Source: a virus (lineage: Duplodnaviria > Heunggongvirae > Uroviricota > Caudoviricetes). Taken from it: 64,000 nt of DNA. Shown one piece after another: positions 4,515-49,501 of the stretch; positions within the stretch are counted from its first letter, which is position 1; every line of letters begins with the position of its first letter. The position numbers were made by a program, and so were the translations under genes. The notes beneath the pieces are model-generated. The model saw only the letters and a program-made list of their open reading frames with translations, did no database searches and had not been told where the DNA came from. The DNA lies in IMG/VR virus record IMGVR_UViG_2579779105_000001, one strand, 5' to 3'.

Positions 4515-4590
4515 TGATGGTGTAGCTCAGCGGTTAGAGCGGTTGACTGTTAATCAACGGGTCGATGGTTCAAATCCATCCACCATCGCC
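4515..4590 (+). tRNA. tRNA-Asn (anticodon GTT)
   Basis: Manual cloverleaf: acceptor GATGGTG/CACCATC, D-arm TAGCTCAGCGGTTAGAGC, anticodon loop CTGTTAA, T-loop GGTTCAAATCC, 3' CCA encoded. Confidence 0.85.
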
Positions 4591-4592
4591 AA

Positions 4593-4668
4593 TGCCGGTT
4601 TAGCTCAGTTGGTAGAGCGCCTGCCTTGTAAGCAGGATGTCAGCGGTTCGAGTCCGTTAACCGGCACC
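4593..4668 (+). tRNA. tRNA-Thr (anticodon TGT)
   Basis: Acceptor GCCGGTT/AACCGGC, anticodon stem-loop CCTGC-CTTGTAA-GCAGG, T-loop GGTTCGAGTCC, CCA encoded. Confidence 0.85.
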
Positions 4669-4677
4669 AACACAACA

Positions 4678-4750
4678 GGTAAGGGTATTTTGCGACGTCG
4701 GAGATCGCCGTGCTTGGCAGAGGGTTCGAATCCCTACGAAGTACCCTTAC
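4678..4750 (+). pseudogene. degenerate tRNA-like element
   Basis: 10-bp perfect outer stem (GGTAAGGGTA / TACCCTTACC) encloses a T-arm-like AGGGTTCGAATCCCT hairpin, but the T-arm is not adjacent to the acceptor stem and no D or anticodon arm fits. Confidence 0.3.
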
Positions 4751-4882
4751 CGTTGTGATGAAGTGCAGCTCTTTGAAGCAACCAGAAGATAAGCATCTGG
4801 CTTCACAACATAAACCGCAGGAACGACCAATAAACGGTAGTCCGTATGGAGAACACCCCGTTGAGGAAGAGGCCTGGCCGGA

Positions 4883-4993
4883 ACCGTAACCGGCACCACA
4901 ACGTTGAGAACATTGGCGTAACGGGATCATATCCCAATCTATGAATAAATGTCGCGAGGCAGCGTGACAACCAGTGTTCTCAACGTTGTGGTG
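4883..4993. repeat. 19-bp perfect inverted repeat (CACCACAACGTTGAGAACA and its reverse complement) around a 73-nt loop
   Basis: Read directly from the sequence; the loop contains a GGGATCATATCCC palindrome with a GATC site. Confidence 0.6.
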
Positions 4994-5133
4994 GATTCGC
5001 AGACTGATGCGATAGCTTTCTTGGATGTTAGGGAAATGCGGCCGCAAATCTTCCCTTTCGCGAGCGGTGATCGTCCGTAGTCCTAATTGGCTGCACCGTA
5101 TGCCGGAGATTCAGTACCGGCCACCACAACGGC

Positions 5134-5220
5134 CGGAGAGTAGGGAGCATGGTGCTCAAGCGGTCTTGAAAACCGTCCCATTGCGCAAGCGATGATGGTT
5201 CGATTCCATTACTCTCCGCC
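5134..5220 (+). tRNA. tRNA-Ser-like (anticodon TGA), class II with long variable arm; slightly non-canonical D-arm
   Basis: Acceptor GGAGAGT/ACTCTCC, anticodon arm GCGGT-CTTGAAA-ACCGT (near-identical to the E. coli tRNA-Ser(UGA) arm), T-arm GATGG-TTCGATT-CCATT, discriminator G, CCA encoded. Confidence 0.5.
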
Positions 5221-5484
5221 AGCGCAACGTTAAGAGTATTTGGCTAATTAAGCGAATGCCGGAAGCAGAACCGGATCACCAAATGCGTACAGGCGTCATC
5301 GCCGCCCAGCCAGCCAAGTGCTCTTACCATTGCGGTGAATGCGGCTAAGCGCACGCGGAACAGTTAAAACAATCCTTATTAGTGGTTAAATCAAACATCC
5401 CGGCGTTAATTGTTAACTGGTTAACGTCACCTGGAGGCACCAGGCACCGCAGCTTTTTTATTCGTTAAATAATGGAGTGAGAGG

Positions 5485-5703
5485 ATGCAGAACAATCCGA
5501 ACAAATGTCGAACGCTATGGGTGCGGCTATATATTTATGTCGTCCTCTGTTTGATTGTGTCACTGGTTCTGTATGTTTGGCTTTTGCCAAATATGATCTC
5601 ATCTGACAGCACAATACTTGTATTGTTGGGAGTCCTTCTCGCGCTCATTTACCCGGCTTTTGCAGTAGTCTTTTTTCGCAAAAAAATCCAGGAAATTGAT
5701 TAA
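5485..5703 (+). CDS. small hydrophobic membrane protein (two predicted TM helices)
   Basis: 72-aa ORF with hydrophobic segments; its stop overlaps the start of the next gene (ATTAATG). Confidence 0.45.
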   Translation: MQNNPNKCRTLWVRLYIYVVLCLIVSLVLYVWLLPNMISSDSTILVLLGVLLALIYPAFAVVFFRKKIQEID

Positions 5704-6530
5704 TGAAAAAAACGTTGATTAGTGCAGCGATTATTTTTGGTTCTTTATGTCTGACCGGATGCGACCGGGTAGAACCAGGCAATGTAGGGATCAAAGTAAA
5801 TAAGCTGGGGGATGATAAAGGTGTCGGCGAAGTAGTTGGCGTTGGTCGCTACTGGACAGGCTGGAACACAGAAGTTTATATCTTCCCGACCTTTAAGCAA
5901 ATGAAGACCTATGATGATCCGTTCAGCTTCCAAATGAGCGACGGGACAACAATTGGTTACCACATTGGTGTAGCTTACAAGGTTGATCCGGCAAAAGTCA
6001 CAACTGTATTTCAGACCTACCGCAAAGGCGTGGATGACATTACCGACACCGACCTGCGCCAGAAGATTGCCGACGCACTTAACCGACTGGCCAGCAAAAT
6101 GACCACCGACAAATTTATCGACGGTGGCAAGTCTGAACTGCTGGATGCAGCTCTTAAAGACATCCAGGAAGAAATGACGCCCATCGGTATTCAGGTAATG
6201 AGCCTCTCATATGTGGGCAAGCCGGAGTACCCGCCAACCGTTATCGACAGCATTAATGCCAAAGTCACGGCGAACCAGAAAACTCTGCAACGCGAGCAGG
6301 AAGTCAAGCAACGCGAAGCAGAAGCCAACATGCTGCGCGCAGAAGCTGCCGGACAGGCCGATGCCATTCGCACAAAAGCCCAGGCTGAAGCTGATGCCAT
6401 TCGTTTACGCGGTGAGGCTCTGCGCCAGAACCCCGGCGTTATGGAGTTGGAAGCGATCAACAAATGGAACGGAACGCTACCGCAGTATATGACCAGTAAT
6501 ACCGCTGTTCCGTTTGTTCCGGTGAAATAA
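5703..6530 (+). CDS. SPFH/band-7 (HflK/C-stomatin-like) domain lipoprotein
   Basis: Lipoprotein signal with LTGC lipobox; SPFH-like core and a C-terminal Ala/Glu/Arg-rich coiled coil (AEANMLRAEAAGQADAIRTKAQAEADAIRLRGEA). Confidence 0.6.
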   Translation: MKKTLISAAIIFGSLCLTGCDRVEPGNVGIKVNKLGDDKGVGEVVGVGRYWTGWNTEVYIFPTFKQMKTYDDPFSFQMSDGTTIGYHIGVAYKVDPAKVTTVFQTYRKGVDDITDTDLRQKIADALNRLASKMTTDKFIDGGKSELLDAALKDIQEEMTPIGIQVMSLSYVGKPEYPPTVIDSINAKVTANQKTLQREQEVKQREAEANMLRAEAAGQADAIRTKAQAEADAIRLRGEALRQNPGVMELEAINKWNGTLPQYMTSNTAVPFVPVK

Positions 6531-6543
6531 CCAAATAGAGAAC

Positions 6544-6675
6544 ATGATGGAATTTTGGACGTTTGCCGACAAGAACCCTTGGTGGACATTTTTATTTCTG
6601 CTGGTGGTTGCATATGGGGTCGAGCAAGCAGCAAAAGCCTTACGCGGTCCTGGCAAAAAGCGTAAGCGGAATTAA
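6544..6675 (+). CDS. small membrane protein (43 aa), below the ORF-track length cutoff
   Basis: Translation MMEFWTFADKNPWWTFLFLLVVAYGVEQAAKALRGPGKKRKRN: one TM segment and a basic tail, immediately downstream of the SPFH gene. Confidence 0.3.
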   Translation: MMEFWTFADKNPWWTFLFLLVVAYGVEQAAKALRGPGKKRKRN

Positions 6676-6684
6676 CAGTAATCT

Positions 6685-6760
6685 GGCCCTTTAGCTCAGT
6701 GGTTAGAGCTGGCGACTCATAATCGCACGGTCACCGGTTCAAGTCCGGTAGGGGCCACCA
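6685..6760 (+). tRNA. tRNA with CAT anticodon (Met, or Ile2 if lysidine-modified)
   Basis: Acceptor GGCCCTT/AGGGGCC with one G-U pair, D-arm TAGCTCAGTGGTTAGAGC, anticodon loop CTCATAA, T-loop GGTTCAAGTCC, CCA encoded. Confidence 0.8.
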
Positions 6761-40472: not shown

Positions 40473-41378
40473 ATGAGATCAGTCGCTTTCAAAAATATCT
40501 TCATCTATCGTCTTTCACGCGAAGTTAACTGGGATACCGCAGAAGTAAATGCAGCCCTTAGCAAGTTTGTGTTTACCCCATGCGGTTCTCAGGATATGGC
40601 TAAAGCTGGTTGGACCCCAATTCTTGGCGACAACCTCACCCATGAATACCAGGGTTTTCTTCTGATGCAGCATAAACGAGAGGAAAAAATCCTGCCTTCT
40701 CAAGTACTCAAAGAAGAGTTACAGAAAAAAATCCTGAAACTTGAAGAAGAGCAAGACAGAAAGCTGAAGAAGACCGAAAAAGATTCGCTGAAGGATGAAG
40801 TGCTTCACTCTCTTCTTCCTCGCGCTTTCACGAGAAAATCAGTCGCTAAAATCCTGATAGACCGAAGCAATCATCTGGTTTTTGTCGAGGCCAGCAGTGC
40901 TAAAAAAGCAGAGGATCAGCTGGCTTTGTTACGGAAATCGCTTGGCAGCTTGCCCGTTGTCCCCTTCTCTCCGAAAGACCCATTAGAACTGACCATCACT
41001 GGCTGGATTAAAGATGGCTTCCCGAACGGTTTCCGTGCTGGTGAGGAAGCGACTTTAAAAGCATTGCTTGATGATGGCGGCGCGGTCCGCTGCAAAAAAG
41101 TGGACCTGCTATCCGACGAGATCATGAGTCATATAGAAGCTGGTAAGGTTGCAACCACAGTTGCGGTTAACTGGCAAGACCGTGCATTTTTCAGACTGAA
41201 TGACGATATGAGTATCAAGGCTTTGTCGTTCAGCGACGAATTGTACGACCAAAACGACGATATTGATCGAGAGGATGTAGCGCAACGATTTGACGCTGAC
41301 TTTATCCTGTTTACTGCTGAATTATCAGCCATGTTCACTTCGCTAGTGGAGGCCGTTGGTGGTGAAGCAGAACGTTAA
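40473..41378 (+). CDS. hrdC: RdgC-like recombination-associated protein (HrdC)
   Basis: Extended similarity to E. coli RdgC ([76 protein letters not shown]). Confidence 0.85.
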
Positions 41379-43650
41379 CCTTAGATATGGTTCTGTTTGC
41401 AGTGGAATTGAAGCAGCGAGCATTGCCTGGGAACCGTTGGGTATGCGTCCGGCGTGGTTTGCTGAAATCGAGCCTTTTCCATCTGCCGTTCTTGCGCACC
41501 GCTGGCCCCATGTCGCCAACCTTGGCGATATGACAAAACTTGCCAAAAAAGTCCTGGCTGGGGAAATCGAATCCCCTGATGTGCTCGTCGGGGGAACACC
41601 TTGTCAGGCATTCAGTATCGCGGGATTACGTGGTGGGCTTGATGATGAGCGTGGCGCGCTAACTTTAAAGTATGTGGAGCTTGCAAATGCAATTGACGAC
41701 AAACGGGCTGAGTCATTTCTCAAACCAGCCGTTATCGTCTGGGAAAATGTCCCAGGAGTCTTGTCATCGGCAGATAACGCCTTCGGATGTTTCCTTGCCG
41801 GATTGGCTGGAGAAGATGCGCCATTCGAACCAGGTGCTCGACCTGAATCACGAAAAAGTAACGCGTTCTGGCGGTGGGATGTCAAAACCAGTTGCCATGC
41901 TCCAAAGTGGCCGCAGTGTGGTTGTATTTATGGACCGCAGCGAAAAGTGGCCTGGAGAATCCTTGATGCCCAATACTTCGGAGTGGCACAACGACGCCGA
42001 CGCGTGTTTGTTGTCGCAAGTGCTCGAACAGACCTCGATCCCGCAACGATACTTTTTGAGTTCGAAGGCGTGCGCCGGAATATTGCGCCGAGCCGAAAAA
42101 AGAAGGAAATCGCTTCCGCCATTATTGCAAATGGCGCTGCAATCAGTGGCGAAAGTCTAAATCCATGCCTACACGCTGACATGCCCCCCGGTATGAAATC
42201 GACGAAAGCCGTAAACGCTTTCAGGATGGCGGCATTTGGGGAATATATTGACGATGAAACCGCATCGACAGTAAAGGCAAGAGACTTTAAAGATGCCACT
42301 GACCTTGCCGTTTTTAGCAGCACAGGAGCAGGTTTTTGGTCAGAGGGGCATGGTACATTGCGGGCGCGTGAGCAAGAAAGCCATGAGCATCTTGTTACAT
42401 TAGCTTTTCCTGAGCATATGAGCGGTACACAACATGCTGCAACTAAGAATACTTCACCATCTCTAATGGCTCAAAATCCAACAGCCGTTTGCTATGAAGC
42501 AAGAAACGCAAAAGTAGCTGTTCGCCGTCTTACCCCTGTCGAATGTGAAAGGCTGCAAGGTTTTCCTGATGGGCATACGTTGATCCCTACGGAAAAGCGT
42601 AAAACAATTTCCTCAGATGAACTGGCATACCTTCGCAATCACTATCCAGATTTAAGCGAAGAAGAGGCCGCGATGCTCGCTGCTGACGGGCCGCGTTACA
42701 AAGCGATTGGCAACAGCATGGCAGTTCCTGTTATGCAATGGATTGGGTGTTGCATTCTTGCGACTGTGGAAGCTAAACAGCCAAAAACAATAAATACCAT
42801 TACCTACACAAGAATACTCCGGACTCCGGATGAATATGAGCGTCCGATCTTCAAATGGGTAGGAGGTAAATTCTCAGAGTTACCTACAGTGCTTGAGCAT
42901 CTACCACACGGCAAGCGGTTAATAGAACCATTCGTTGGTGGCGGTTCCGTATTTACGAATGCAGGATTTCGCCACAACCTGCTTAATGATATTAACGGTG
43001 ACCTGATTAACTTCTATCAGACATTGCAGCGAGAAGGACATTCGCTCGTCACGCTGTCATATAGTTTTTTCCAAAATTACAACAACGCTGACGCTTACCT
43101 CGAAGTGCGTGAGGCATTTAACAGAGGAAAGTATGACCAGCTACATCATGCTGCCGCCTTTTTGTACCTTAATCGGCACTGTTTTAATGGCGTAACGCGG
43201 TACAACCAAAATGGCGAGTTCAACGTGGGGTATGGCAAATACAAAGCGCCCTACTTCCCACATGCAGAGATGGAGGCATTTTTGGCTGATGACGTACTCA
43301 AAAACACGTCCTTTGTATCAGGTGACTTTGCTGGCGTCATCGAGGCGGCTGGTGAAGGCGATGTGATTTTTTGCGATCCGCCGTATGAACCGCTGCCGGA
43401 TACAGAAGGGTTTACCAGTTATTCAGGAAATAGCTTCCGTTTCGACGAACAGAAACGGCTGGTATCTCTATTGGTGGAAGCCCACCAGCGCGGCGCTAAG
43501 GTAGTGATTACAAATAGTGGTGCGCCAAACATCCGTGAACTATATGAAGGAAACGGGTTTAAAGTACATCATATGGCAGCCAGACGGTCGGTTTCCTGCA
43601 AGGCGTCAACACGTGTAGTTGCTAACGATATAATTGCAATAATGAAGTAA
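41356..43650 (+). CDS. dmt: bifunctional DNA methyltransferase (N-terminal C5-cytosine MTase fused to C-terminal Dam-like N6-adenine MTase; Dmt-like)
   Basis: [12 protein letters not shown] (C5-MTase PCQ motif) and ENVPGV in the N-terminal half; WVGGKF and FCDPPYEP (DPPY) in the C-terminal half. Overlaps the hrdC 3' end. Confidence 0.8.
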
Positions 43651-43652
43651 AA

Positions 43653-43681
43653 AACGCCGCAGTAGCGGCGTTTACTTTTTT
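43653..43681. terminator. bidirectional rho-independent terminator (AACGCCGC-AGTA-GCGGCGTT)
   Basis: Flanked by A-run and T-run, between convergent dmt and glnS. Confidence 0.6.
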
Positions 43682-43698: not shown

Positions 43699-45360
43699 TT
43701 AACCTAACTTCGCCCAGGTATCACGCAGCCCAACGGTGCGGTTAAATACCGGTTTTTCCGCCGTAGAATGGCGGCTGTCGAGGCAGAAATAACCTTCACG
43801 CTCAAACTGGAATGCTTTACCAGCTACCGCTTCTTTCAGCGACGGTTCAGCAAAGCCCTGTTTGATCACCAGCGATTCCGGGTTAATCACCGACAGAAAA
43901 TCATCCGCAGCACCTGGGTTCGGTACACTGAACAGACGGTCGTACAGGCGAATTTCAACCGGCAGCGCATGGGCCGCGCTTACCCAGTGGATAACGCCTT
44001 TCACTTTACGACCATCTGCCGGATCTTTGCTTAAAGTATCGGCATCGTAGGTACAGAAGATGGTGGTGATATTGCCTTCGGCATCTTTCTCCACGCGTTC
44101 AGCCTTAATGACGTAAGCATTACGCAGACGCACTTCTTTACCCAGCACCAGACGTTTGTACTGCTTGTTAGCTTCTTCGCGGAAATCGGCGCGGTCGATC
44201 CAAATCTCACCGCTAAACGGCACCTGACGGCTACCCATTTCCGGTTTGTTCGGATGGTTCGGCATGGTGACCATTTCGCCTTCGCCCTGGTAGTTTTCGA
44301 TAACCAGTTTCACCGGATCGATAACCGCCATTGCGCGCGGCGCATTTTCGTTGAGATCTTCACGGATGCAGGATTCCAGCGACGCCATCTCAATGGTGTT
44401 GTCCTGCTTGGTCACGCCGATGCGTTTGCAGAACTCACGAATAGAAGCCGCAGTGTAACCACGACGACGCAGACCGGAAATGGTCGGCATACGCGGGTCA
44501 TCCCAGCCTTCAACGTGCTTGTCGGTCACCAGCAGGTTCAGCTTACGCTTGGACATCACAGTGTATTCCAGATTCAGGCGCGAGAATTCGTACTGGCGCG
44601 GGTGAACAGGAATGGTGATGTTGTCCAGCACCCAGTCGTACAGGCGACGGTTGTCCTGGAACTCAAGCGTACACAGAGAGTGCGTAATACCTTCCAGCGC
44701 ATCGCTGATGCAGTGGGTGAAGTCGTACATCGGGTAGATGCACCACTTGTTGCCAGTCTGGTGGTGTTCAGCAAACTTAATGCGGTACAGCACCGGATCG
44801 CGCATCACGATAAACGGCGACGCCATGTCGATTTTCGCACGCAGGCAGGCTTTACCTTCTTCAAAACCACCGGCACGCATTTTTTCGAACAGCGCCAGGT
44901 TCTCTTCAACGCTGCGATCGCGGTACGGGCTGTTTTTACCCGGCTGCGTCAGGGTGCCGCGGTATTCGCGGATCTGTTCCGGCGTCAGTTCGTCAACATA
45001 CGCCAGGCCTTTGTTGATCAGTTCAACAGCATAGGCGTGGAGCTGATCAAAATAATCGGAGGAGTAACGGACGTTACCAGACCAGTGAAAACCTAACCAT
45101 TCAACGTCGTTTTTAATCGACTCGACGTACTCGATATCTTCTTTTACCGGGTTAGTGTCGTCGAAACGCAGGTTGCACTGGCCTTTATAGTCCTGGGCGA
45201 TCCCGAAGTTCAGGCAGATAGATTTCGCATGACCAATATGCAGATAGCCATTCGGTTCCGGCGGGAAACGGGTATGTACTGTGGTGTGCTTACCACTTGC
45301 CAGATCTTCATCGATGATCTGACGAATAAAGTTAGTCGGGCGGGCTTCTGCCTCACTCAT
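43699..45360 (-). CDS. glnS: glutaminyl-tRNA synthetase (full length, host-like)
   Basis: 553 aa, essentially co-linear with E. coli GlnS from [20 protein letters not shown] through the C-terminal anticodon-binding domain; HIGH motif (HIGH) and VMSKR present. Confidence 0.95.
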
Positions 45361-45628
45361 TGTGGATTCCTCAAAGCGTAAAAAACGTATAACAGCGTAT
45401 GATCTTATAAGCCGAATAGGCTGACAACCACTAGTTGATTAGAAATTGCTTTCTATCGTTATTTCAATAATGAGCTTTTTCATGAAGCCCACTTTTGCGC
45501 ATAAGTAAATTAATGACAAATGGTACACAATTGGAACCAAAAAGGATGTAAAGGTGCACCAAATTAGTGGTGTATTGGTGCATCTTTGGTTCAAGATTTT
45601 TTAAGTTCTAAAACCACCCTGAAAGACT

Positions 45629-45916
45629 TTATTTTGCTTCCTCAGACTCCGCTAACATGAGGATAGCATGGCGGATCATATTCAATTTGCTGCGATTATG
45701 CTTTTTACTTAACGCATCAAGTACCTGGTACTCGTATTCATTGAAACCAACACGAATAGATTTAAAATCACGTGGAGCGTCCTTATCGAGCACTTTGTTG
45801 TCTTCTGGTTGCTCACCCGGCACCAAATCAGCCTTACTTGCAAAATCCTCAATTCGGCGTTCAAGATCGGGGTCTTTTACTTCGGGGGCTTTTACCGATT
45901 TACGAGGTTTAATCAC
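45629..45916 (-). CDS. small centromere-binding partition protein (ParG/ParB-like, type Ib)
   Basis: 95 aa immediately downstream of and overlapping the ParA-like ATPase gene. Confidence 0.5.
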   Translation of the reverse strand: MIKPRKSVKAPEVKDPDLERRIEDFASKADLVPGEQPEDNKVLDKDAPRDFKSIRVGFNEYEYQVLDALSKKHNRSKLNMIRHAILMLAESEEAK

Positions 45917-46550
45917 TTAATAACTCCTTAACCAACATCTGGATTTCACCTTTAGCTTTCCCGTTGTCCATCTCAACAACGCCCTTCCCTTCAGCCATGC
46001 AATCGCGGTAAACCTTACGATCACGAATGATGGTTTTCAGCAACTTCAGTTGCGGATATTCAGCCAGGTACTCTTTGGCCTCATTGGTTTCATTCACAAC
46101 CGGATTGGATGGGGCCATTGTTAAGACTGCGAACGCCTTAATGCTAGGATTAGGCATCAGGTCCAAAGCCTCTTCAAACACTTCAACAAAGTGTGCCAGC
46201 GTGTCTAAATCTGGTTGAGATGGTCTGAATGGGACCAACACAATATCTGCAGCGGTTATGCCTGTACGCATCTCTTTGCTATCGCGCCCGGCTGTATCAA
46301 CAACTACAAATTCATAACGCTTATCCAGATCGAGAAGTGTTTCTCGAATATTACCAAACTTCTGGACACAATGAATTACAGGAGAAACCTCTGCCGTGTT
46401 ACGGTCAGCGGCCCAGCGGGCAGCTGTTCCTTGCTTGTCTGCATCTAGTAACACTACATCCTTATTTTCGCGGGCAAGCTCCGCACAGATGTTTACGCTT
46501 GTGGTTGATTTTCCACAGCCACCTTTTTGGCTGACTACCAATATAATCAT
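45909..46550 (-). CDS. ParA/ParF-family partition ATPase (small, type Ib)
   Basis: Deviant Walker A KGGCGKST at the N-terminus; 213 aa. Confidence 0.75.
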   Translation of the reverse strand: MIILVVSQKGGCGKSTTSVNICAELARENKDVVLLDADKQGTAARWAADRNTAEVSPVIHCVQKFGNIRETLLDLDKRYEFVVVDTAGRDSKEMRTGITAADIVLVPFRPSQPDLDTLAHFVEVFEEALDLMPNPSIKAFAVLTMAPSNPVVNETNEAKEYLAEYPQLKLLKTIIRDRKVYRDCMAEGKGVVEMDNGKAKGEIQMLVKELLSD

Positions 46551-46569
46551 ATCCGTTCCTCGGTGTTAT

Positions 46570-46800
46570 TTTGGTATCAAACTGGTTCCAAACAGAAGCC
46601 TTATTGATGCAGTTTTGGCTCTATAGTGGAGTCATTATGCTTTGCAAAAGTATAACACTAATCATTCTAAATTTGCCCTCTGTTGCATCCTGTTTAACAC
46701 GAAATCAGCCCTAAATTGGAACCAGATACAAAACTGCACCATAACAGCACCTAACCGGTGCCAGATTAACACCAATTAGGCACCATTAAGGCATAAAAAA
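46570..46800. repeat. centromere/operator-like repeat region upstream of the ParA-like gene
   Basis: Repeated TGGAACCA and (T/G)GCACCA motifs; related repeats also occur downstream at about 45530-45600. Confidence 0.4.
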
Positions 46801-46837
46801 GGCTGCAATTTGCAGCCTTAAACCAGCACATCTTCTG

Positions 46838-47182
46838 TCAATCAGGTAGAGAGTCAGCCAGATTGCGCGCCGACGCGCTTTTGGCAACAACTTGCTCCTT
46901 CACTGGCTCAATGGAGGCAGGGCGCTCCTCAACCGCAGCTGGTAGTTCCAGGAAGGATGCCAGCATTTTTCGGATCAGCTCCGGATTATTATCTTCGGTC
47001 AGCAGGGAAGCCAGTAATCCTGGAAGCCTGCTATCGACTTCTCCCAGCGCAAGCCCTGCCAACAATGCGGTTCTTGCCATATCGCTATGTTTTTTTATCT
47101 TCTCGCTCGCCGCCTTTTCATTGGCATAAGCCTCTGGGCGAAGATAAATCATCACTTTCTTACGTTCCTGAGACATGGACAT
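46838..47182 (-). CDS. parR: ParR (StbB-like) centromere-binding protein
   Basis: 114 aa downstream of parM; ARTALLAGLALG region resembles R1 ParR. Confidence 0.6.
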   Translation of the reverse strand: MSMSQERKKVMIYLRPEAYANEKAASEKIKKHSDMARTALLAGLALGEVDSRLPGLLASLLTEDNNPELIRKMLASFLELPAAVEERPASIEPVKEQVVAKSASARNLADSLPD

Positions 47183-47189
47183 TACCTCG

Positions 47190-48146
47190 TTAACCGATTG
47201 CTTTCAGGCCATGAACAAGAGCAAGTTGCGGGTCATCCGCCACGAAGAAACGGTCATCACGAATATTAACTTGCTCGCGAATTGCATCTGCCACCAGCGG
47301 TGCGCCACCACCGATCACCATGACATGCGTATATCCTTTAAAGTCGCCAATCACATCAAGAACGCGGGTACGCAGACGGTCAATGCTTGCGGCAATGGCC
47401 TTTTTCACATCACCAATCGCTGATGGGTCATTGATATTGTCGTTCAGATAATCTTCATCGTGGCGGTTAATAATGAGCTGATCGACATTGTAATTTGACG
47501 TTTCGGTATTGGCCCTTGCAAGTGCTTGCCTTACTTCCCTGGTGACCAGTGATACACCAAGATTCGAATCGCCAAAAACACGGGAAACTGCCGTCATTTG
47601 CCCGGCGACCATTGAAACATCAAGGGTAGTTCCACCCAAATCGACGATAAGAACAGAATGGGCAGGGTTCAGATTGTCGCACAGGCCAATTCCTGCCGGA
47701 ATAGACTCCGGTCGTACCGTAACTTTCTTAATCGTGAACACATTGCCTTTATTCAGCGTGACGGGGCGCATAAGACTGGCTTTCTTGCGCTCGATGTTAT
47801 CGAGATTGTATTGCGCGTCGTCGTCGTAAAACTCCGCCAGAGGCAGCGTGACCACAATTTCTACTTCCTGCGGCTCAATGCCACTTGTCAGCAGGGCATG
47901 GTGAACAGCCAGGACGTTAAGCGGGCTGTATTGCCATTCCACGTTATTCGTCGGCAGAACATCTGGCGAGATCAAATCATACGAATACTTTTCGTCGTCA
48001 ATGACATAGTTAAACGGCTTGCCCGCACCAAATGTTGCTGACCATCCGCGCTTAAAGCTGTTAGGGCTGATGTGAGTGCGAGTTTCCCCGTCGTGCTCCC
48101 ACAGCATTTTGATATTGGTTGAACCATCATCGATAAAAATGCGCAT
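47190..48146 (-). CDS. parM: ParM (StbA) actin-like partition ATPase
   Basis: Start set at MRIFIDDGSTNIK; extensive similarity to R1 ParM (ISPNSFKR, NVLAVHHALLTSG, IERKKA, MPESIPAG, IVDLGGTTLDVS, GDSNLGVSLVT, GYTHVMVIGGGA, RDDRFF). Confidence 0.85.
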   Translation of the reverse strand: MRIFIDDGSTNIKMLWEHDGETRTHISPNSFKRGWSATFGAGKPFNYVIDDEKYSYDLISPDVLPTNNVEWQYSPLNVLAVHHALLTSGIEPQEVEIVVTLPLAEFYDDDAQYNLDNIERKKASLMRPVTLNKGNVFTIKKVTVRPESIPAGIGLCDNLNPAHSVLIVDLGGTTLDVSMVAGQMTAVSRVFGDSNLGVSLVTREVRQALARANTETSNYNVDQLIINRHDEDYLNDNINDPSAIGDVKKAIAASIDRLRTRVLDVIGDFKGYTHVMVIGGGAPLVADAIREQVNIRDDRFFVADDPQLALVHGLKAIG

Positions 48147-48170
48147 CTTCTTGCTCCACTTCTGAGACAC

Positions 48171-48345
48171 ATTTGAGAATCATAATGCAATTTTAAAAGA
48201 GAAGCCCCCAAAAATCCACACCAAAAGAGATAAAAAAAGAGTGATTATTGAGTTCATTTTGAGAATACCTTAATCACCCAATGAATTATGGTCTGACAGT
48301 GAGATTTATTTGAGAATGAAGTGAGAATACAGAAATATTCCGAAA
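48171..48345. repeat. parC-like iteron region (repeated TTTGAGAAT units) upstream of parM
   Basis: At least four TGAGAAT-containing repeats. Confidence 0.45.
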
Positions 48346-48413
48346 TTTAACTCTCAGTTTGAATGATGAAATAACAAAGTGATGACAATAGGAGGATAAC
48401 CCGGAGGTGAAGA

Positions 48414-48698
48414 ATGAGCGCAATAGCCACCAGCGACACCCTTTGTTCTGGTCACGGAGGATTTCCGCCGCGACTGGTAGCTGAAACTGTTCCCTGGTTC
48501 ACCGTTAACGGTAAGCCAATTGTTGTAGATGGTGCCATGTTTCCCAGTCACACTGACGGTAACAGTGCACATCCAGGGGCAGCTGTATCGACGCGAGTAT
48601 GGTTTTCGATAGGTGGAAAGGGAGTTGTCTGTGTAGGCGATCCGCTTTCTTGTGGTTCTGTTATCGCCAACGGCGAGGATATTTTTCAGGTTGCATAA
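48414..48698 (+). CDS. PAAR-like (spike-tip) domain protein
   Basis: 94 aa, Gly/Cys/His-rich (CSGHGG ... NGKPIVVDGAMFPSH ... CVGDPLSCGS), resembling PAAR-repeat proteins; from memory. Confidence 0.4.
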   Translation: MSAIATSDTLCSGHGGFPPRLVAETVPWFTVNGKPIVVDGAMFPSHTDGNSAHPGAAVSTRVWFSIGGKGVVCVGDPLSCGSVIANGEDIFQVA

Positions 48699-49501
48699 TG
48701 CTTGATTCAATAGGTGAAGTTAAAGCCTTCAAAATTCTGTCAGATGCCGGTATCTCTACACCAGAATCTATAACCATAAGCCGGGCAGCGTCTGTAAAAG
48801 CCTCATCACTCGCCAGCGCCATACAGGGAATAGTTCACGCCGATAAAACCTATCCTGATTCTGTTTCGGCCTGGACTACTCAATTGCTTGGCTTTTCTGA
48901 ACAGCTCAATGAGGCCAGCAAAGCGTCTTCATTACTGGCTGATTCTCTTTCCCCATACACCAAGCCATCAGAGCTGTTACAGATGAAGATTGGCTGGGAA
49001 TGCTACGTAAAAGGTAACGAGCTGACCCCCATACCTGCTTTCGCCCTTGTTGAGGGGATGGGGAATGTTTCCATTCCGCAATCTCTAACGGACGCATTGA
49101 CGGCGCTAAAACTTGATGCTCTGAAAACCGCCATGAACGCCATTAACGCAAAAATAGAAGCTGCTGGAAGTGCTGGTGGTGATAGCAATGGTGGACAGGG
49201 TGGTGCTGGGGGCGCTCAGGCTCCAGTCATTACTCAGGATGAAATTGATGCTCTACGGGAAGCAGTGACAGCCGCCGAAGTTTTACTCTCCGAAATTAAC
49301 TCAGCAAGTGAGAGTGTCGTAGCCCTTACAGGTCGCATTAAAACGTCAACCACTCAGGCAACCAAAGGTTTAGAGAACGCTGTCGCCATCACGTTAACTG
49401 GTTCTCTACTGGATGATGCAGTAATGAGTCCGGCAATCAGTTTAATCATGCCACAAGGCGTTATCGATGCGCTCCAAAAGAACACCAAAAAGGAACAATA
49501 G
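48698..49501 (+). CDS. hypothetical protein (Ala/Ser/Gly-rich)
   Basis: Start set at MLDSIGEV overlapping the upstream stop. Confidence 0.45.
   Translation: MLDSIGEVKAFKILSDAGISTPESITISRAASVKASSLASAIQGIVHADKTYPDSVSAWTTQLLGFSEQLNEASKASSLLADSLSPYTKPSELLQMKIGWECYVKGNELTPIPAFALVEGMGNVSIPQSLTDALTALKLDALKTAMNAINAKIEAAGSAGGDSNGGQGGAGGAQAPVITQDEIDALREAVTAAEVLLSEINSASESVVALTGRIKTSTTQATKGLENAVAITLTGSLLDDAVMSPAISLIMPQGVIDALQKNTKKEQ

Follow-up and report, generated by a model that had tools for sequence, protein, structure and literature searches.

The stretch of viral DNA analysed here (64,000 nucleotides, referred to below as the window) carries two partition loci of different types next to each other, a type II ParM/ParR locus and a type Ib ParF/ParG-like locus. 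Very probably, each is a functional partition cassette independent of the other, and the two stand in tandem on the minus strand of a D6-like plasmid prophage. A first-pass annotation made from the sequence had proposed that the two types adjoin and that each has its own repeats; Pfam families, structure matches and array statistics bear this out, and the four genes are indeed the minus-strand open reading frames that it had placed there.

Element and layout of the par region

At the sequence level, the window is a D6-like phage-plasmid of the P1 family. Its par region is 100% identical to that of pKFS-D08_2 and 96.9% identical to that of phage D6. The par locus is matched by 123 PLSDB plasmids, and D6-like phage-plasmids are frequent in E. 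coli, Salmonella and Shigella. The four genes, all on the minus strand, follow each other head to tail as parM, parR, the small parA and the gene of a 95-aa adaptor, ORF95 (Table 1). The gap between parM and parR is 7 nt, while the start of the adaptor gene and the stop of parA overlap by 8 nt. Conservation and selection were assessed in five loci, namely the window, D6 and the loci L005, L006 and L007, and the terminator between the cassettes is kept in all of them.

The D6-type par locus is found between upfC on one side and dmt/glnS on the other, about 10.5 kb from RepB. Besides the two cassettes, no further partition genes were found on the reference plasmid. The statement of the first-pass annotation that a P1-type ParA/ParB/parS is absent also holds: tblastn of the window and of the closest 92-kb plasmid with P1 ParA, ParB and RepA gave a best E-value of 0.38, so that the hallmarks of type Ia (large ParA with HTH, HTH-ParB and parS) were not found. 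A PADLOC scan for defence systems gave no meaningful match, and a literature search, covering sources other than the text of the D6 genome paper, found no paper testing D6-like par loci.

Table 1. Features of the par region and its surroundings (positions in the window, listed in the direction of transcription)
Feature	Position	Strand	Remarks
parC(II), distal iteron cluster	48300..48328	-	Putative; three iterons; + strand TGAGA at 48300, 48311, 48322
parC(II), middle iteron cluster	48249..48266	-	Putative; ATTCTCAAAA and variant ACTCA, 11 bp apart
Putative parMR promoter	48190..48218	-	-35 TGGATT 48218-48213, 17-nt spacer, -10 TAAAAT 48195-48190; read by eye
parC(II), promoter-proximal iteron pair	48163..48180	-	Putative; ATTCTCAAATGTGTCTCA; in 5' leader, just upstream of SD GGAG (48157-48154)
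parM	47190..48146	-	Actin-like segregation ATPase, 318 aa; ATG at 48146, in-frame GTG upstream at 48170
parR/stbB	46838..47182	-	Type II centromere-binding adaptor, 112-114 aa; PF10784
Intrinsic terminator	46799..46819	-	Ends parMR operon and divides the two cassettes; 9-bp stem, 5 GC pairs, T-run
Distal upstream box array	46717..46785	.	5-6 boxes TGGTGCYA/TGGNNCCA, mostly 11-bp spacing; starts ~13 bp after terminator
Putative par-Ib promoter	46649..46660	-	Extended -10 TGTTATACT 46657-46649; box-like TAGTGTTA 46660-46653 overlaps; read by eye
Promoter-proximal box array	46561..46612	.	4 boxes (46561, 46572, 46583, 46605), between -10 and RBS
Small parA	45909..46550	-	Type Ib partition ATPase, 213 aa; deviant Walker A KGGCGKST, residues 9-16; no N-terminal HTH extension
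95-aa adaptor (ORF95)	45629..45916	-	Predicted ribbon-helix-helix, ParG/ParB-Ib analogue; from AF2 fold and homologue family
Downstream box array	45521..45616	.	7 boxes, partly palindromic, TTGAACC...GGTGCACC...GGTTCCAA; inverted repeat
Chromosome-derived glnS segment	43703..45448	-	Gene and ~88 bp upstream; between downstream array and backbone terminator 43652-43673

The type II cassette and its candidate centromere region

ParM matches the Pfam families StbA_N (E = 1.8e-69, 233 bits) and ParM C-terminal domain (3.5e-55, 187 bits), both far over the cutoff, and the R1 ParM structures 1mwk and 4a62 match it over the full length at about 1e-111. It is 43% identical to pB171-type ParM and about 54% identical to IncF-type ParM. 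ParR matches PF10784 at 3.5e-11 (43.2 bits, cutoff 25), and the structure of pB171 ParR (2jd3) matches its residues 4-76 at 1.1e-6; the identity is 32% to the pB171-type and 31% to the R1-type protein. The cassette thus combines an actin-fold ParM ATPase with a ParR adaptor of the N-terminal RHH type, whose gene immediately follows parM. The dN/dS ratio is 0.02-0.04 for parM and about 0.08 for parR.

Upstream of parM lies a putative parC, in which seven TCTCA-core iterons form three clusters between 48163 and 48328, with a spacing of 11 bp within clusters. Read on the plus strand, TGAGA cores stand at 48163, 48174, 48260, 48300, 48311 and 48322, and TGAGT at 48249. Six TGAGA cores are seen vs. 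about 0.24 expected in 190 bp, an approximately 25-fold enrichment. The exact sequence TTGAGAAT occurs five times in 64 kb, and three of these copies belong here (48173, 48259 and 48310), alongside GTGAGAAT at 48321. The first-pass annotation was right that ParR iterons are present upstream, but the array turned out to start 8 bp before the range given there and to contain more than the four TTTGAGAAT-type copies.

The iteron cores are invariant in all five loci, while the spacers vary. The promoter-proximal block down to the parM ATG is likewise invariant, including in the divergent L006, whose ParR is 59% identical (BLASTP) and which carries 11-bp iterons of its own, TGTCTCT/TGTCTCA, in a 3x3 layout. 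TAAAAT and TGG..TT of the putative parMR promoter are conserved in the same five loci; a consensus promoter scan flagged neither this promoter nor the putative promoter of the type Ib operon. As a sequence pattern, the region has tandem iterons about one helical turn apart that precede parM and surround the putative promoter.

The type Ib cassette and its box arrays

The small ParA belongs to the ParA/MinD-type P-loop families according to Pfam (AAA_31, CbiA, MipZ and VirC1). Its best full-length match is NCBIfam ParA_partition, with 7e-48 and 162.8 bits, which is below the 180-bit equivalog cutoff. Among solved structures, TP228 ParF (4dzz) matches at 1.5e-18, and the identity to the pB171-type par2 ParA is 43%. 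The size of about 200 aa, the deviant Walker A motif (KGGxxK[ST]) and the lack of an N-terminal HTH are those of a type Ib protein. The dN/dS ratio of parA is 0.03-0.04.

ORF95 is predicted to be a ribbon-helix-helix adaptor. On its own the protein has no Pfam match and no PDB sequence match, and its family has no name in Pfam or NCBIfam. A word-indexed protein search found only relatives at least 76% identical, and a full HMMER library was used for the wider family, yielding about 100 representative clusters of homologues. RHH_1 or a NikA-like family is matched by 16-19 of 64 family members, and the family profile matches CopG weakly (E 0.25-0.8). The AF2 model has a pLDDT of 89, which rises to 96-99 in the helix-helix part, and it places helices at 60-73 and 77-94. 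Its top folds are CopG, Arc and TacA, with a probability of up to 0.97, a TM-score to the target of 0.84 and 1.0 Å rmsd, the Foldseek E-values for so short an RHH domain being not significant by themselves. In the N-terminal part, Arg5 and Phe25 hardly vary across the family alignment, and a helix is predicted at 16-29. The monomer model is thus consistent with a small RHH protein encoded downstream of parA, as in type Ib systems. No significant similarity was seen between ORF95 and either the pB171-type ParB or the adaptor of an IncK2/Z plasmid. The closest non-phage pair, found on another plasmid, is an ORF95 homologue (51% identical) that follows a ParA homologue (67% identical) beside RepB.

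Boxes of 8 bp, TGGTGCYA/TGGNNCCA, lie on either side of the parA operon, grouped into two upstream clusters and one downstream cluster. The motif is degenerate and its definition was partly set after viewing the sequence, and the following counts should be read accordingly. The distance between neighbouring boxes is a multiple of 11 bp in 10 of 15 cases (binomial p = 7.5e-8), as compared to 15% in the rest of the window. With TGGNNCCA required at 5 or more of 6 positions, seven occurrences fall in the 250 bp from 46551 to 46800, vs. a window mean of 1.1 and a maximum elsewhere of 4. Over the whole window, the half-site [GA][CA]ACCA reaches its highest density at 45531 (6 in 90 bp) and its second highest at 46731. 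A weight matrix (seeded hard-EM) trained only on L005 and L007 gives its two highest ranks to the 250-bp bins at 46571 and 45521. The 11-bp arrays that TRF reports are only weak; among them is an 11-bp period at 46770-46793. An unconstrained EM motif run gave a 4-bit quasi-palindrome, which reflects only the rough symmetry of the box, and a general repeat search returned mostly chance pairs. As a sequence pattern, candidate centromere/operator boxes thus adjoin the operon, and its two flanks, where the first-pass annotation had noted repeats, are the top-ranked box intervals of the whole 64-kb window.

Among the relatives, L005 and L006 have equivalent downstream arrays; the ORF95 of L005 is 77% identical. 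L007 combines an adaptor of 98% amino-acid identity with an upstream array of only about 50% DNA identity, which still has TGGTGC boxes at 11-bp spacing. The element TG(T/C)TATACT of the putative par-Ib promoter is invariant in the five loci, whereas its flanks are only about 45-75% identical. A 51-aa ORF at 45439-45594 runs into the downstream array and matches no family, and it was treated as spurious.

Beyond the downstream array lies a glnS segment that is 96% identical to the chromosomal glnS of more than 5,400 E. coli genomes, and no terminator was found between the par-Ib operon and this insertion. The downstream repeats had been described as bordering the insertion, which is approximately correct; the last box (45521) is about 73 bp from the edge, i.e. 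near it and not at it. L005 and L006 have no glnS, and the same array directly precedes a terminator there.

Probable dual maintenance, other readings and known systems

None of the four ORFs is disrupted in the window, D6, L005, L006 or L007; where dS can be measured, dN/dS is 0.02-0.09, and every relative compared has kept both cis arrays. At 80% identity or more, ParM is found on 119 PLSDB plasmids and ParA on 118, and 100 of the 123 megablast matches span both cassettes; the cassettes thus appear to co-occur across the family. Independent recombination of the two cassettes and of their cis arrays gives a mosaic identity profile across relatives.

We infer the protein-DNA binding, the promoters, the autoregulation and the stabilising function from sequence. 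In the type II cassette, ParR dimers would bind the 11-bp TCTCA-core iterons cooperatively, with the three clusters surrounding the parMR promoter; the ParR-iteron complex would repress the parMR operon and cap ParM filaments, and the filaments would push sister plasmids apart. In the type Ib cassette, the RHH adaptor ORF95 would bind the arrays of 8-bp TGGTGCYA-like boxes, i.e. the distal and promoter/leader clusters upstream and the single array downstream of the operon, and the boxes would lie on one face of the DNA because they are phased at one helical turn. ORF95 may autoregulate its operon via the box over the -10 and the leader boxes, and its N-terminal tail (Arg5, helix 16-29) may stimulate the ATPase of the nucleoid-bound small ParA, which would position plasmids by a ParA-gradient mechanism. 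Together, the two cassettes would stand in for the type Ia ParABS of P1, and both would be kept for the additive stability that they give to a very-low-copy prophage.

The first-pass annotation had suggested module replacement in progress or redundancy. Under replacement, a recently acquired cassette would coexist with a degenerating older one, and only one of them would work. The cassettes do differ in evolutionary history and recombine independently, and dual systems are formally redundant. However, the intact genes, the low dN/dS and the co-occurrence, with nearly equal numbers of plasmids carrying a close ParM and a close ParA and with both cis arrays kept, argue against replacement and for stable dual maintenance, and we consider replacement very unlikely. 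What remains as the alternative to it would be stable redundancy or synergy, by analogy with pB171. It is also very unlikely, though slightly less so, that the ParA and RHH pair has a role other than partition, such as the positioning of another cargo, the control of glnS or phage-gene transcription, or an incompatibility/exclusion weapon against rival plasmids. The ParA score slightly under the curated partition-ATPase cutoff, the nameless adaptor family, the missing terminator before glnS and the distance of the locus from the replicon are in line with such a role, but ParA_partition is still the best full-length match, the closest non-phage pair adjoins a RepB replicon, the upstream and downstream arrays mirror pB171 par2, the operon and its arrays are the same in relatives without glnS, and the defence-system scan was negative.

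A cross-regulated locus of the pB171 kind, in which the type Ib adaptor also controls the type II promoter via shared sites, likewise has little probability. One TGGTG-type box, CCACACCA (48217-48224), lies at the putative parMR -35, and the distal box array adjoins the terminator of parR. But one box is no more than expected by chance (about 0.33 per 100 bp in the background), 1.4 kb and a terminator separate the tandem cassettes, they share no central parC1, and they are exchanged independently among relatives. As an extension of the two-cassette reading, we tentatively propose that the cassettes, and the adaptor plus site array within each, are independently exchangeable specificity modules among D6-like phage-plasmids, with recombination inside parA as well as at and near the conserved terminator between the cassettes. 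If so, exchange would create new partition-incompatibility combinations, by which related phage-plasmids could co-reside or displace one another, and a prophage that keeps two systems of different mechanism would be buffered during the swap of one specificity.

The E. coli virulence plasmid pB171, with an IncFIB replicon, has par1, a type II parMR, and par2, a type Ib parAB with parC1 and parC2; its cassettes share the central parC1, which gives regulatory cross-talk. The comparison was made on the pB171-type locus of pCE10A. Both loci have the same combination of types in adjacent cassettes, at the identities given above for ParM, ParR and small ParA, as well as short degenerate boxes upstream and downstream of the type Ib operon and a small adaptor (about 90 aa) whose translation is coupled to that of parA. 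In pCE10A, however, the cassettes are divergent, whereas here they are in tandem with a terminator between them and private sites for each. The boxes are TCACA/TCATA there and TGGTGCYA here, the ParR iterons are ATACTCAAT.TGAG x2 vs. TTCTCAAAT-type x7, and the host replicon is that of a P1-family phage-plasmid instead of IncFIB. With cassettes that point the same way, a terminator between them and separate arrays for each, the D6-type locus is not a member of the pB171 architecture (divergent, with a shared central parC1); it probably works like that of pB171 yet falls outside this specific arrangement. The combination of type II and type Ib, known already from pB171 and common on enterobacterial plasmids, is real but ordinary. 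Type II combined with an RHH type I system occurs on 971 PLSDB plasmids (PMC13245405).

No new mechanism is revealed by these data. Their interest is that D6-like phage-plasmids, which persist at very low copy number, would rely on a pB171-like pair instead of ParABS, and that candidate centromere/operator sites, now mapped to the base, are concrete targets for work on curing, vector design and incompatibility typing. With the mosaic pattern as a natural data set, the diversification of partition specificity can be studied.

Other known systems resemble single parts of the locus. R1/NR1 parMRC (stbAB) likewise has parC upstream with 11-bp iterons on both sides of the promoter, but an R1-type locus (L013) has AAAACCC-type iterons that differ from those here, and the R1 type has two runs of about five iterons instead of three clusters of 2-3. 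TP228 parFGH provides the best solved-structure match of ParA (ParF), and its ParG, present in the fold list as 1p94, has the same plan as ORF95, a flexible N-terminal part and a C-terminal RHH; however, the sequence similarity to ParF is far lower than that to pB171 ParA, and the box sequence also differs. The parH site of TP228 lies only upstream. P1 ParABS has the same biological role in a related phage-plasmid, and P1 and the D6-type element share the virion, dmt, hrdC and upfB/upfC genes. The par locus of P1 lies beside repA/incA between gene 23 and upfA, as opposed to the upfC-dmt/glnS interval of the D6 type.

Genes of the two partition cassettes

The first-pass annotation proposed two adjacent partition systems of different types, each with its own repeats; gene matches and mapped arrays confirm and sharpen this view (Table). 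The typing as type II ParM/ParR next to type Ib ParF/ParG-like turned out to be right, as judged by the matches to ParM, ParR, ParA_partition and ParF. In the type II cassette, ParM matches both ParM Pfam domains and the R1 ParM structures (~1e-111), and ParR matches PF10784 in a Pfam search and the pB171 ParR structure 2jd3. The best family of the small type Ib ParA is NCBIfam ParA_partition (7e-48, full length; 162.8 bits, under the 180-bit equivalog cutoff), and its best solved relative is TP228 ParF.

Table. Features of the partition region and glnS
Feature	Position	Strand	Remarks
parM	48146-47190	minus	318 aa; in-frame GTG at 48170; SD GGAG at 48157-48154
parR	47182-46838	minus	
Intrinsic terminator	46819-46799	minus	3' of parR
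Distal upstream box cluster	46717-46785		array span; begins ~13 bp past parR terminator
Putative extended -10 TGTTATACT	46657-46649		conserved; overlapped by box-like TAGTGTTA
Promoter-proximal box cluster	starts 46561, 46572, 46583, 46605		between conserved extended -10 and RBS
Small parA	46550-45909	minus	213 aa; Walker A KGGCGKST
ORF95	45916-45629	minus	8-nt overlap with parA stop
Downstream box cluster	starts 45521, 45532, 45554, 45568, 45576, 45587, 45609		3' of ORF95 stop
glnS	45360-43699	minus	
Bidirectional terminator	43652-43673		

ORF95 alone found no family match in Pfam/NCBIfam-type and structure-sequence searches. An exhaustive HMMER search yielded homologues of 80-100 aa in ~100 representative clusters; 16-19 of 64 aligned family members match RHH_1 or NikA-like, and the family profile matches CopG weakly. 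In the AlphaFold model (pLDDT 89), an N-terminal helix (16-29) is followed by an extended segment and by helices 60-73 and 77-94. Structure comparison places the model closest to ribbon-helix-helix proteins of the CopG, Arc and TacA type (1.0 Å rmsd, probability 0.97), and ParG is also among the matches. Homologue profiles, model and fold matches point indirectly to ORF95 being a ribbon-helix-helix protein. A ParA/ORF95 homologue pair (ParA 67%, adaptor 51% identical) adjoins the RepB initiator on a non-phage enterobacterial plasmid, which is a canonical partition context. In L011, a plasmid of Enterobacteriaceae bacterium Kacie_13, the 2680-2830 region has TATCACGTT repeats, probably Rep iterons, that separate RepB from the homologous ParA/adaptor pair; 3' of the adaptor the array shrinks to 2-3 TACCA-type boxes with 11-bp spacing, much smaller than the D6-like one.

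Repeat arrays and comparison with known systems

Each type Ib box is an 8-bp quasi-palindrome of the TGGTGCYA/TGGNNCCA type. Matches to TGGNNCCA at no fewer than five of six positions number 7 per 250 bp over the upstream box clusters (46551-46800; mean 1.1; maximum elsewhere 4). Window-wide, half-site hexamer density ranks first at 45531 and second at 46731, and a weight matrix derived solely from L005 and L007, the par loci of two relatives, likewise places both array regions at ranks 1 and 2. Of 15 distances between neighbouring boxes, ten are whole multiples of 11 bp (p=7.5e-8), versus 15% elsewhere. Arrays of the same kind lie on both sides in relatives, even at only 40-60% DNA identity. 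The L007 adaptor shows 98% aa identity to that of the window, compared with ~50% DNA identity for the upstream array, which is still made of TGGTGC boxes with 11-bp spacing; this contrast is the strongest computational evidence that selection acts on the boxes themselves.

For the type II cassette, the 64 kb contain five exact copies of TTGAGAAT, three of which, together with GTGAGAAT, fall inside 48173-48328. The TGAGA cores form three clusters with 11-bp spacing within each (48163/48174; 48260, with TGAGT at 48249; 48300/48311/48322), against 0.24 expected by chance. Aligning five relatives shows invariant cores and diverged spacers; the proximal iteron pair through to the parM ATG is invariant, the relative L006 included. 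The ParR of L006 is 59% identical to that of the window by BLASTP (62.5% over aligned codons), and its iterons, arranged 3x3 at 11 bp, are of a slightly different type, TGTCTCT/TGTCTCA. Between iteron clusters, a conserved TAAAAT (48195-48190) and the TGGATT lying 17 nt upstream of it could plausibly form a promoter; a promoter scan of the window did not flag it. A lone TGGTG-type box, CCACACCA, lies at 48217-48224 on the putative -35 of parMR; since its frequency is at chance level, it is not evidence for pB171-like cross-regulation.

Among known systems the pB171 double par locus comes closest; it was seen here via pCE10A, where parMR and parA plus a 91-aa parB are divergent and TCACA/TCATA boxes lie between and downstream of the cassettes. 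Identity to this locus is 43% for ParM, 32% for ParR and 43% for ParA, and sequence comparison detects no similarity between ORF95 and its ParB adaptor. The window's cassettes are in tandem rather than divergent, their sites are private to each cassette rather than shared and differ in sequence, and the host replicon, unlike that of the pB171-type locus, is a phage-plasmid. An R1-type locus has the same parC architecture as the window but unrelated AAAACCC-type iterons. A 2026 survey counted type-I RHH together with type II systems on 971 PLSDB plasmids and remarked that earlier reports of this combination exist (PMC13245405).

Maintenance and mosaicism

Replacement in progress, one of the readings offered initially, is not supported, and neither system is decaying. 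The window, D6, L005, L006 and L007 all keep the four par ORFs intact, and dN/dS is 0.02-0.09 wherever dS is informative. PLSDB plasmids with ParM of at least 80% identity number 119, those with ParA at the same level 118, and, of 123 megablast hits, 100 extend across both cassettes; in L005, a partial hit, the ParA cassette is diverged, not absent. The locus is a new, uncharacterised example of a known partition pair, whose function is inferred from sequence.

The identity profile of window 45500-48900 against L005, L006, L007 and L001 is sharply mosaic. L006 shares 96-100% over parA-orf95, versus 52-66% in parR and 35-48% in parC(II); L005 shares 92-100% over parR-parM, versus 41-75% in orf95 and the downstream array; for L007 the similarity breakpoint lies inside parA. 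The most diverged parts are always cis arrays and adaptors. By this pattern the cassettes are independent, recombining units, and their apparent independent shuffling, together with that of the specificity determinants, among D6-like phage-plasmids is the most interesting residue of the locus.

Replicon and neighbouring genes

Over the 3-kb par region, identity reaches 100% with E. coli plasmid pKFS-D08_2 (CP125036.1) and 96.9% with phage D6 (MF356679). The region matches 123 PLSDB plasmids from Escherichia, Salmonella, Shigella and two Klebsiella (121 non-mobilizable; most ~90 kb). Its neighbours are virion and accessory genes of the P1 family (hrdC/rdgC, dmt, upfC, upfB, genes 23 and 22), so the window belongs to a D6-like plasmid prophage. 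In the annotation of D6 itself the four genes are named StbA-type, StbB-type, 'possible ParA partitioning function' and hypothetical, and a 2019 paper on D6-like Salmonella plasmids grouped 'cop, parA, stbB and parM' as a single partition system (PMC6799933). Our literature search found no experimental work on D6-like par loci. The initial statement that P1-type ParA/ParB/parS is absent agrees with tblastn, by which P1 ParA, ParB and RepA have no homologues in the window or in its closest complete plasmid match, whose annotation lists no further partition gene. In that plasmid RepB is ~10.5 kb from the par locus; the P1 par operon lies beside repA, between gene 23 and upfA.

Window 43703-45448, covering glnS and ~88 bp upstream, is homologous to the E. 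coli chromosome (96% identity). Relatives that lack glnS have a terminator and the convergent methylase gene directly after the downstream array. In the window, no terminator was found in the ORF95-glnS interval, and the bidirectional terminator is now 3' of glnS. The insertion displaced the terminator that trails the array in those relatives, and, given the lack of one before glnS, par-Ib transcripts may read through into this gene. The segment 45449-45520 is neither chromosomal nor common to relatives without glnS.

At 41356-43650 (plus strand), one 764-aa ORF with a TTG start joins a cytosine-methylase-like N-terminal region and a Dam-like C-terminal one, an arrangement shared with P1 Dmt; the D6 annotation has two separate ORFs (64 and 63) here, and in the record of the closest plasmid the ORF is partly unannotated. 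A tRNA cluster at 4516-6760 (plus strand) comprises Asn-GTT, Thr-TGT, Ser-TGA and Met-CAT; the D6-like pYU39_89 is reported to have this same set of four.
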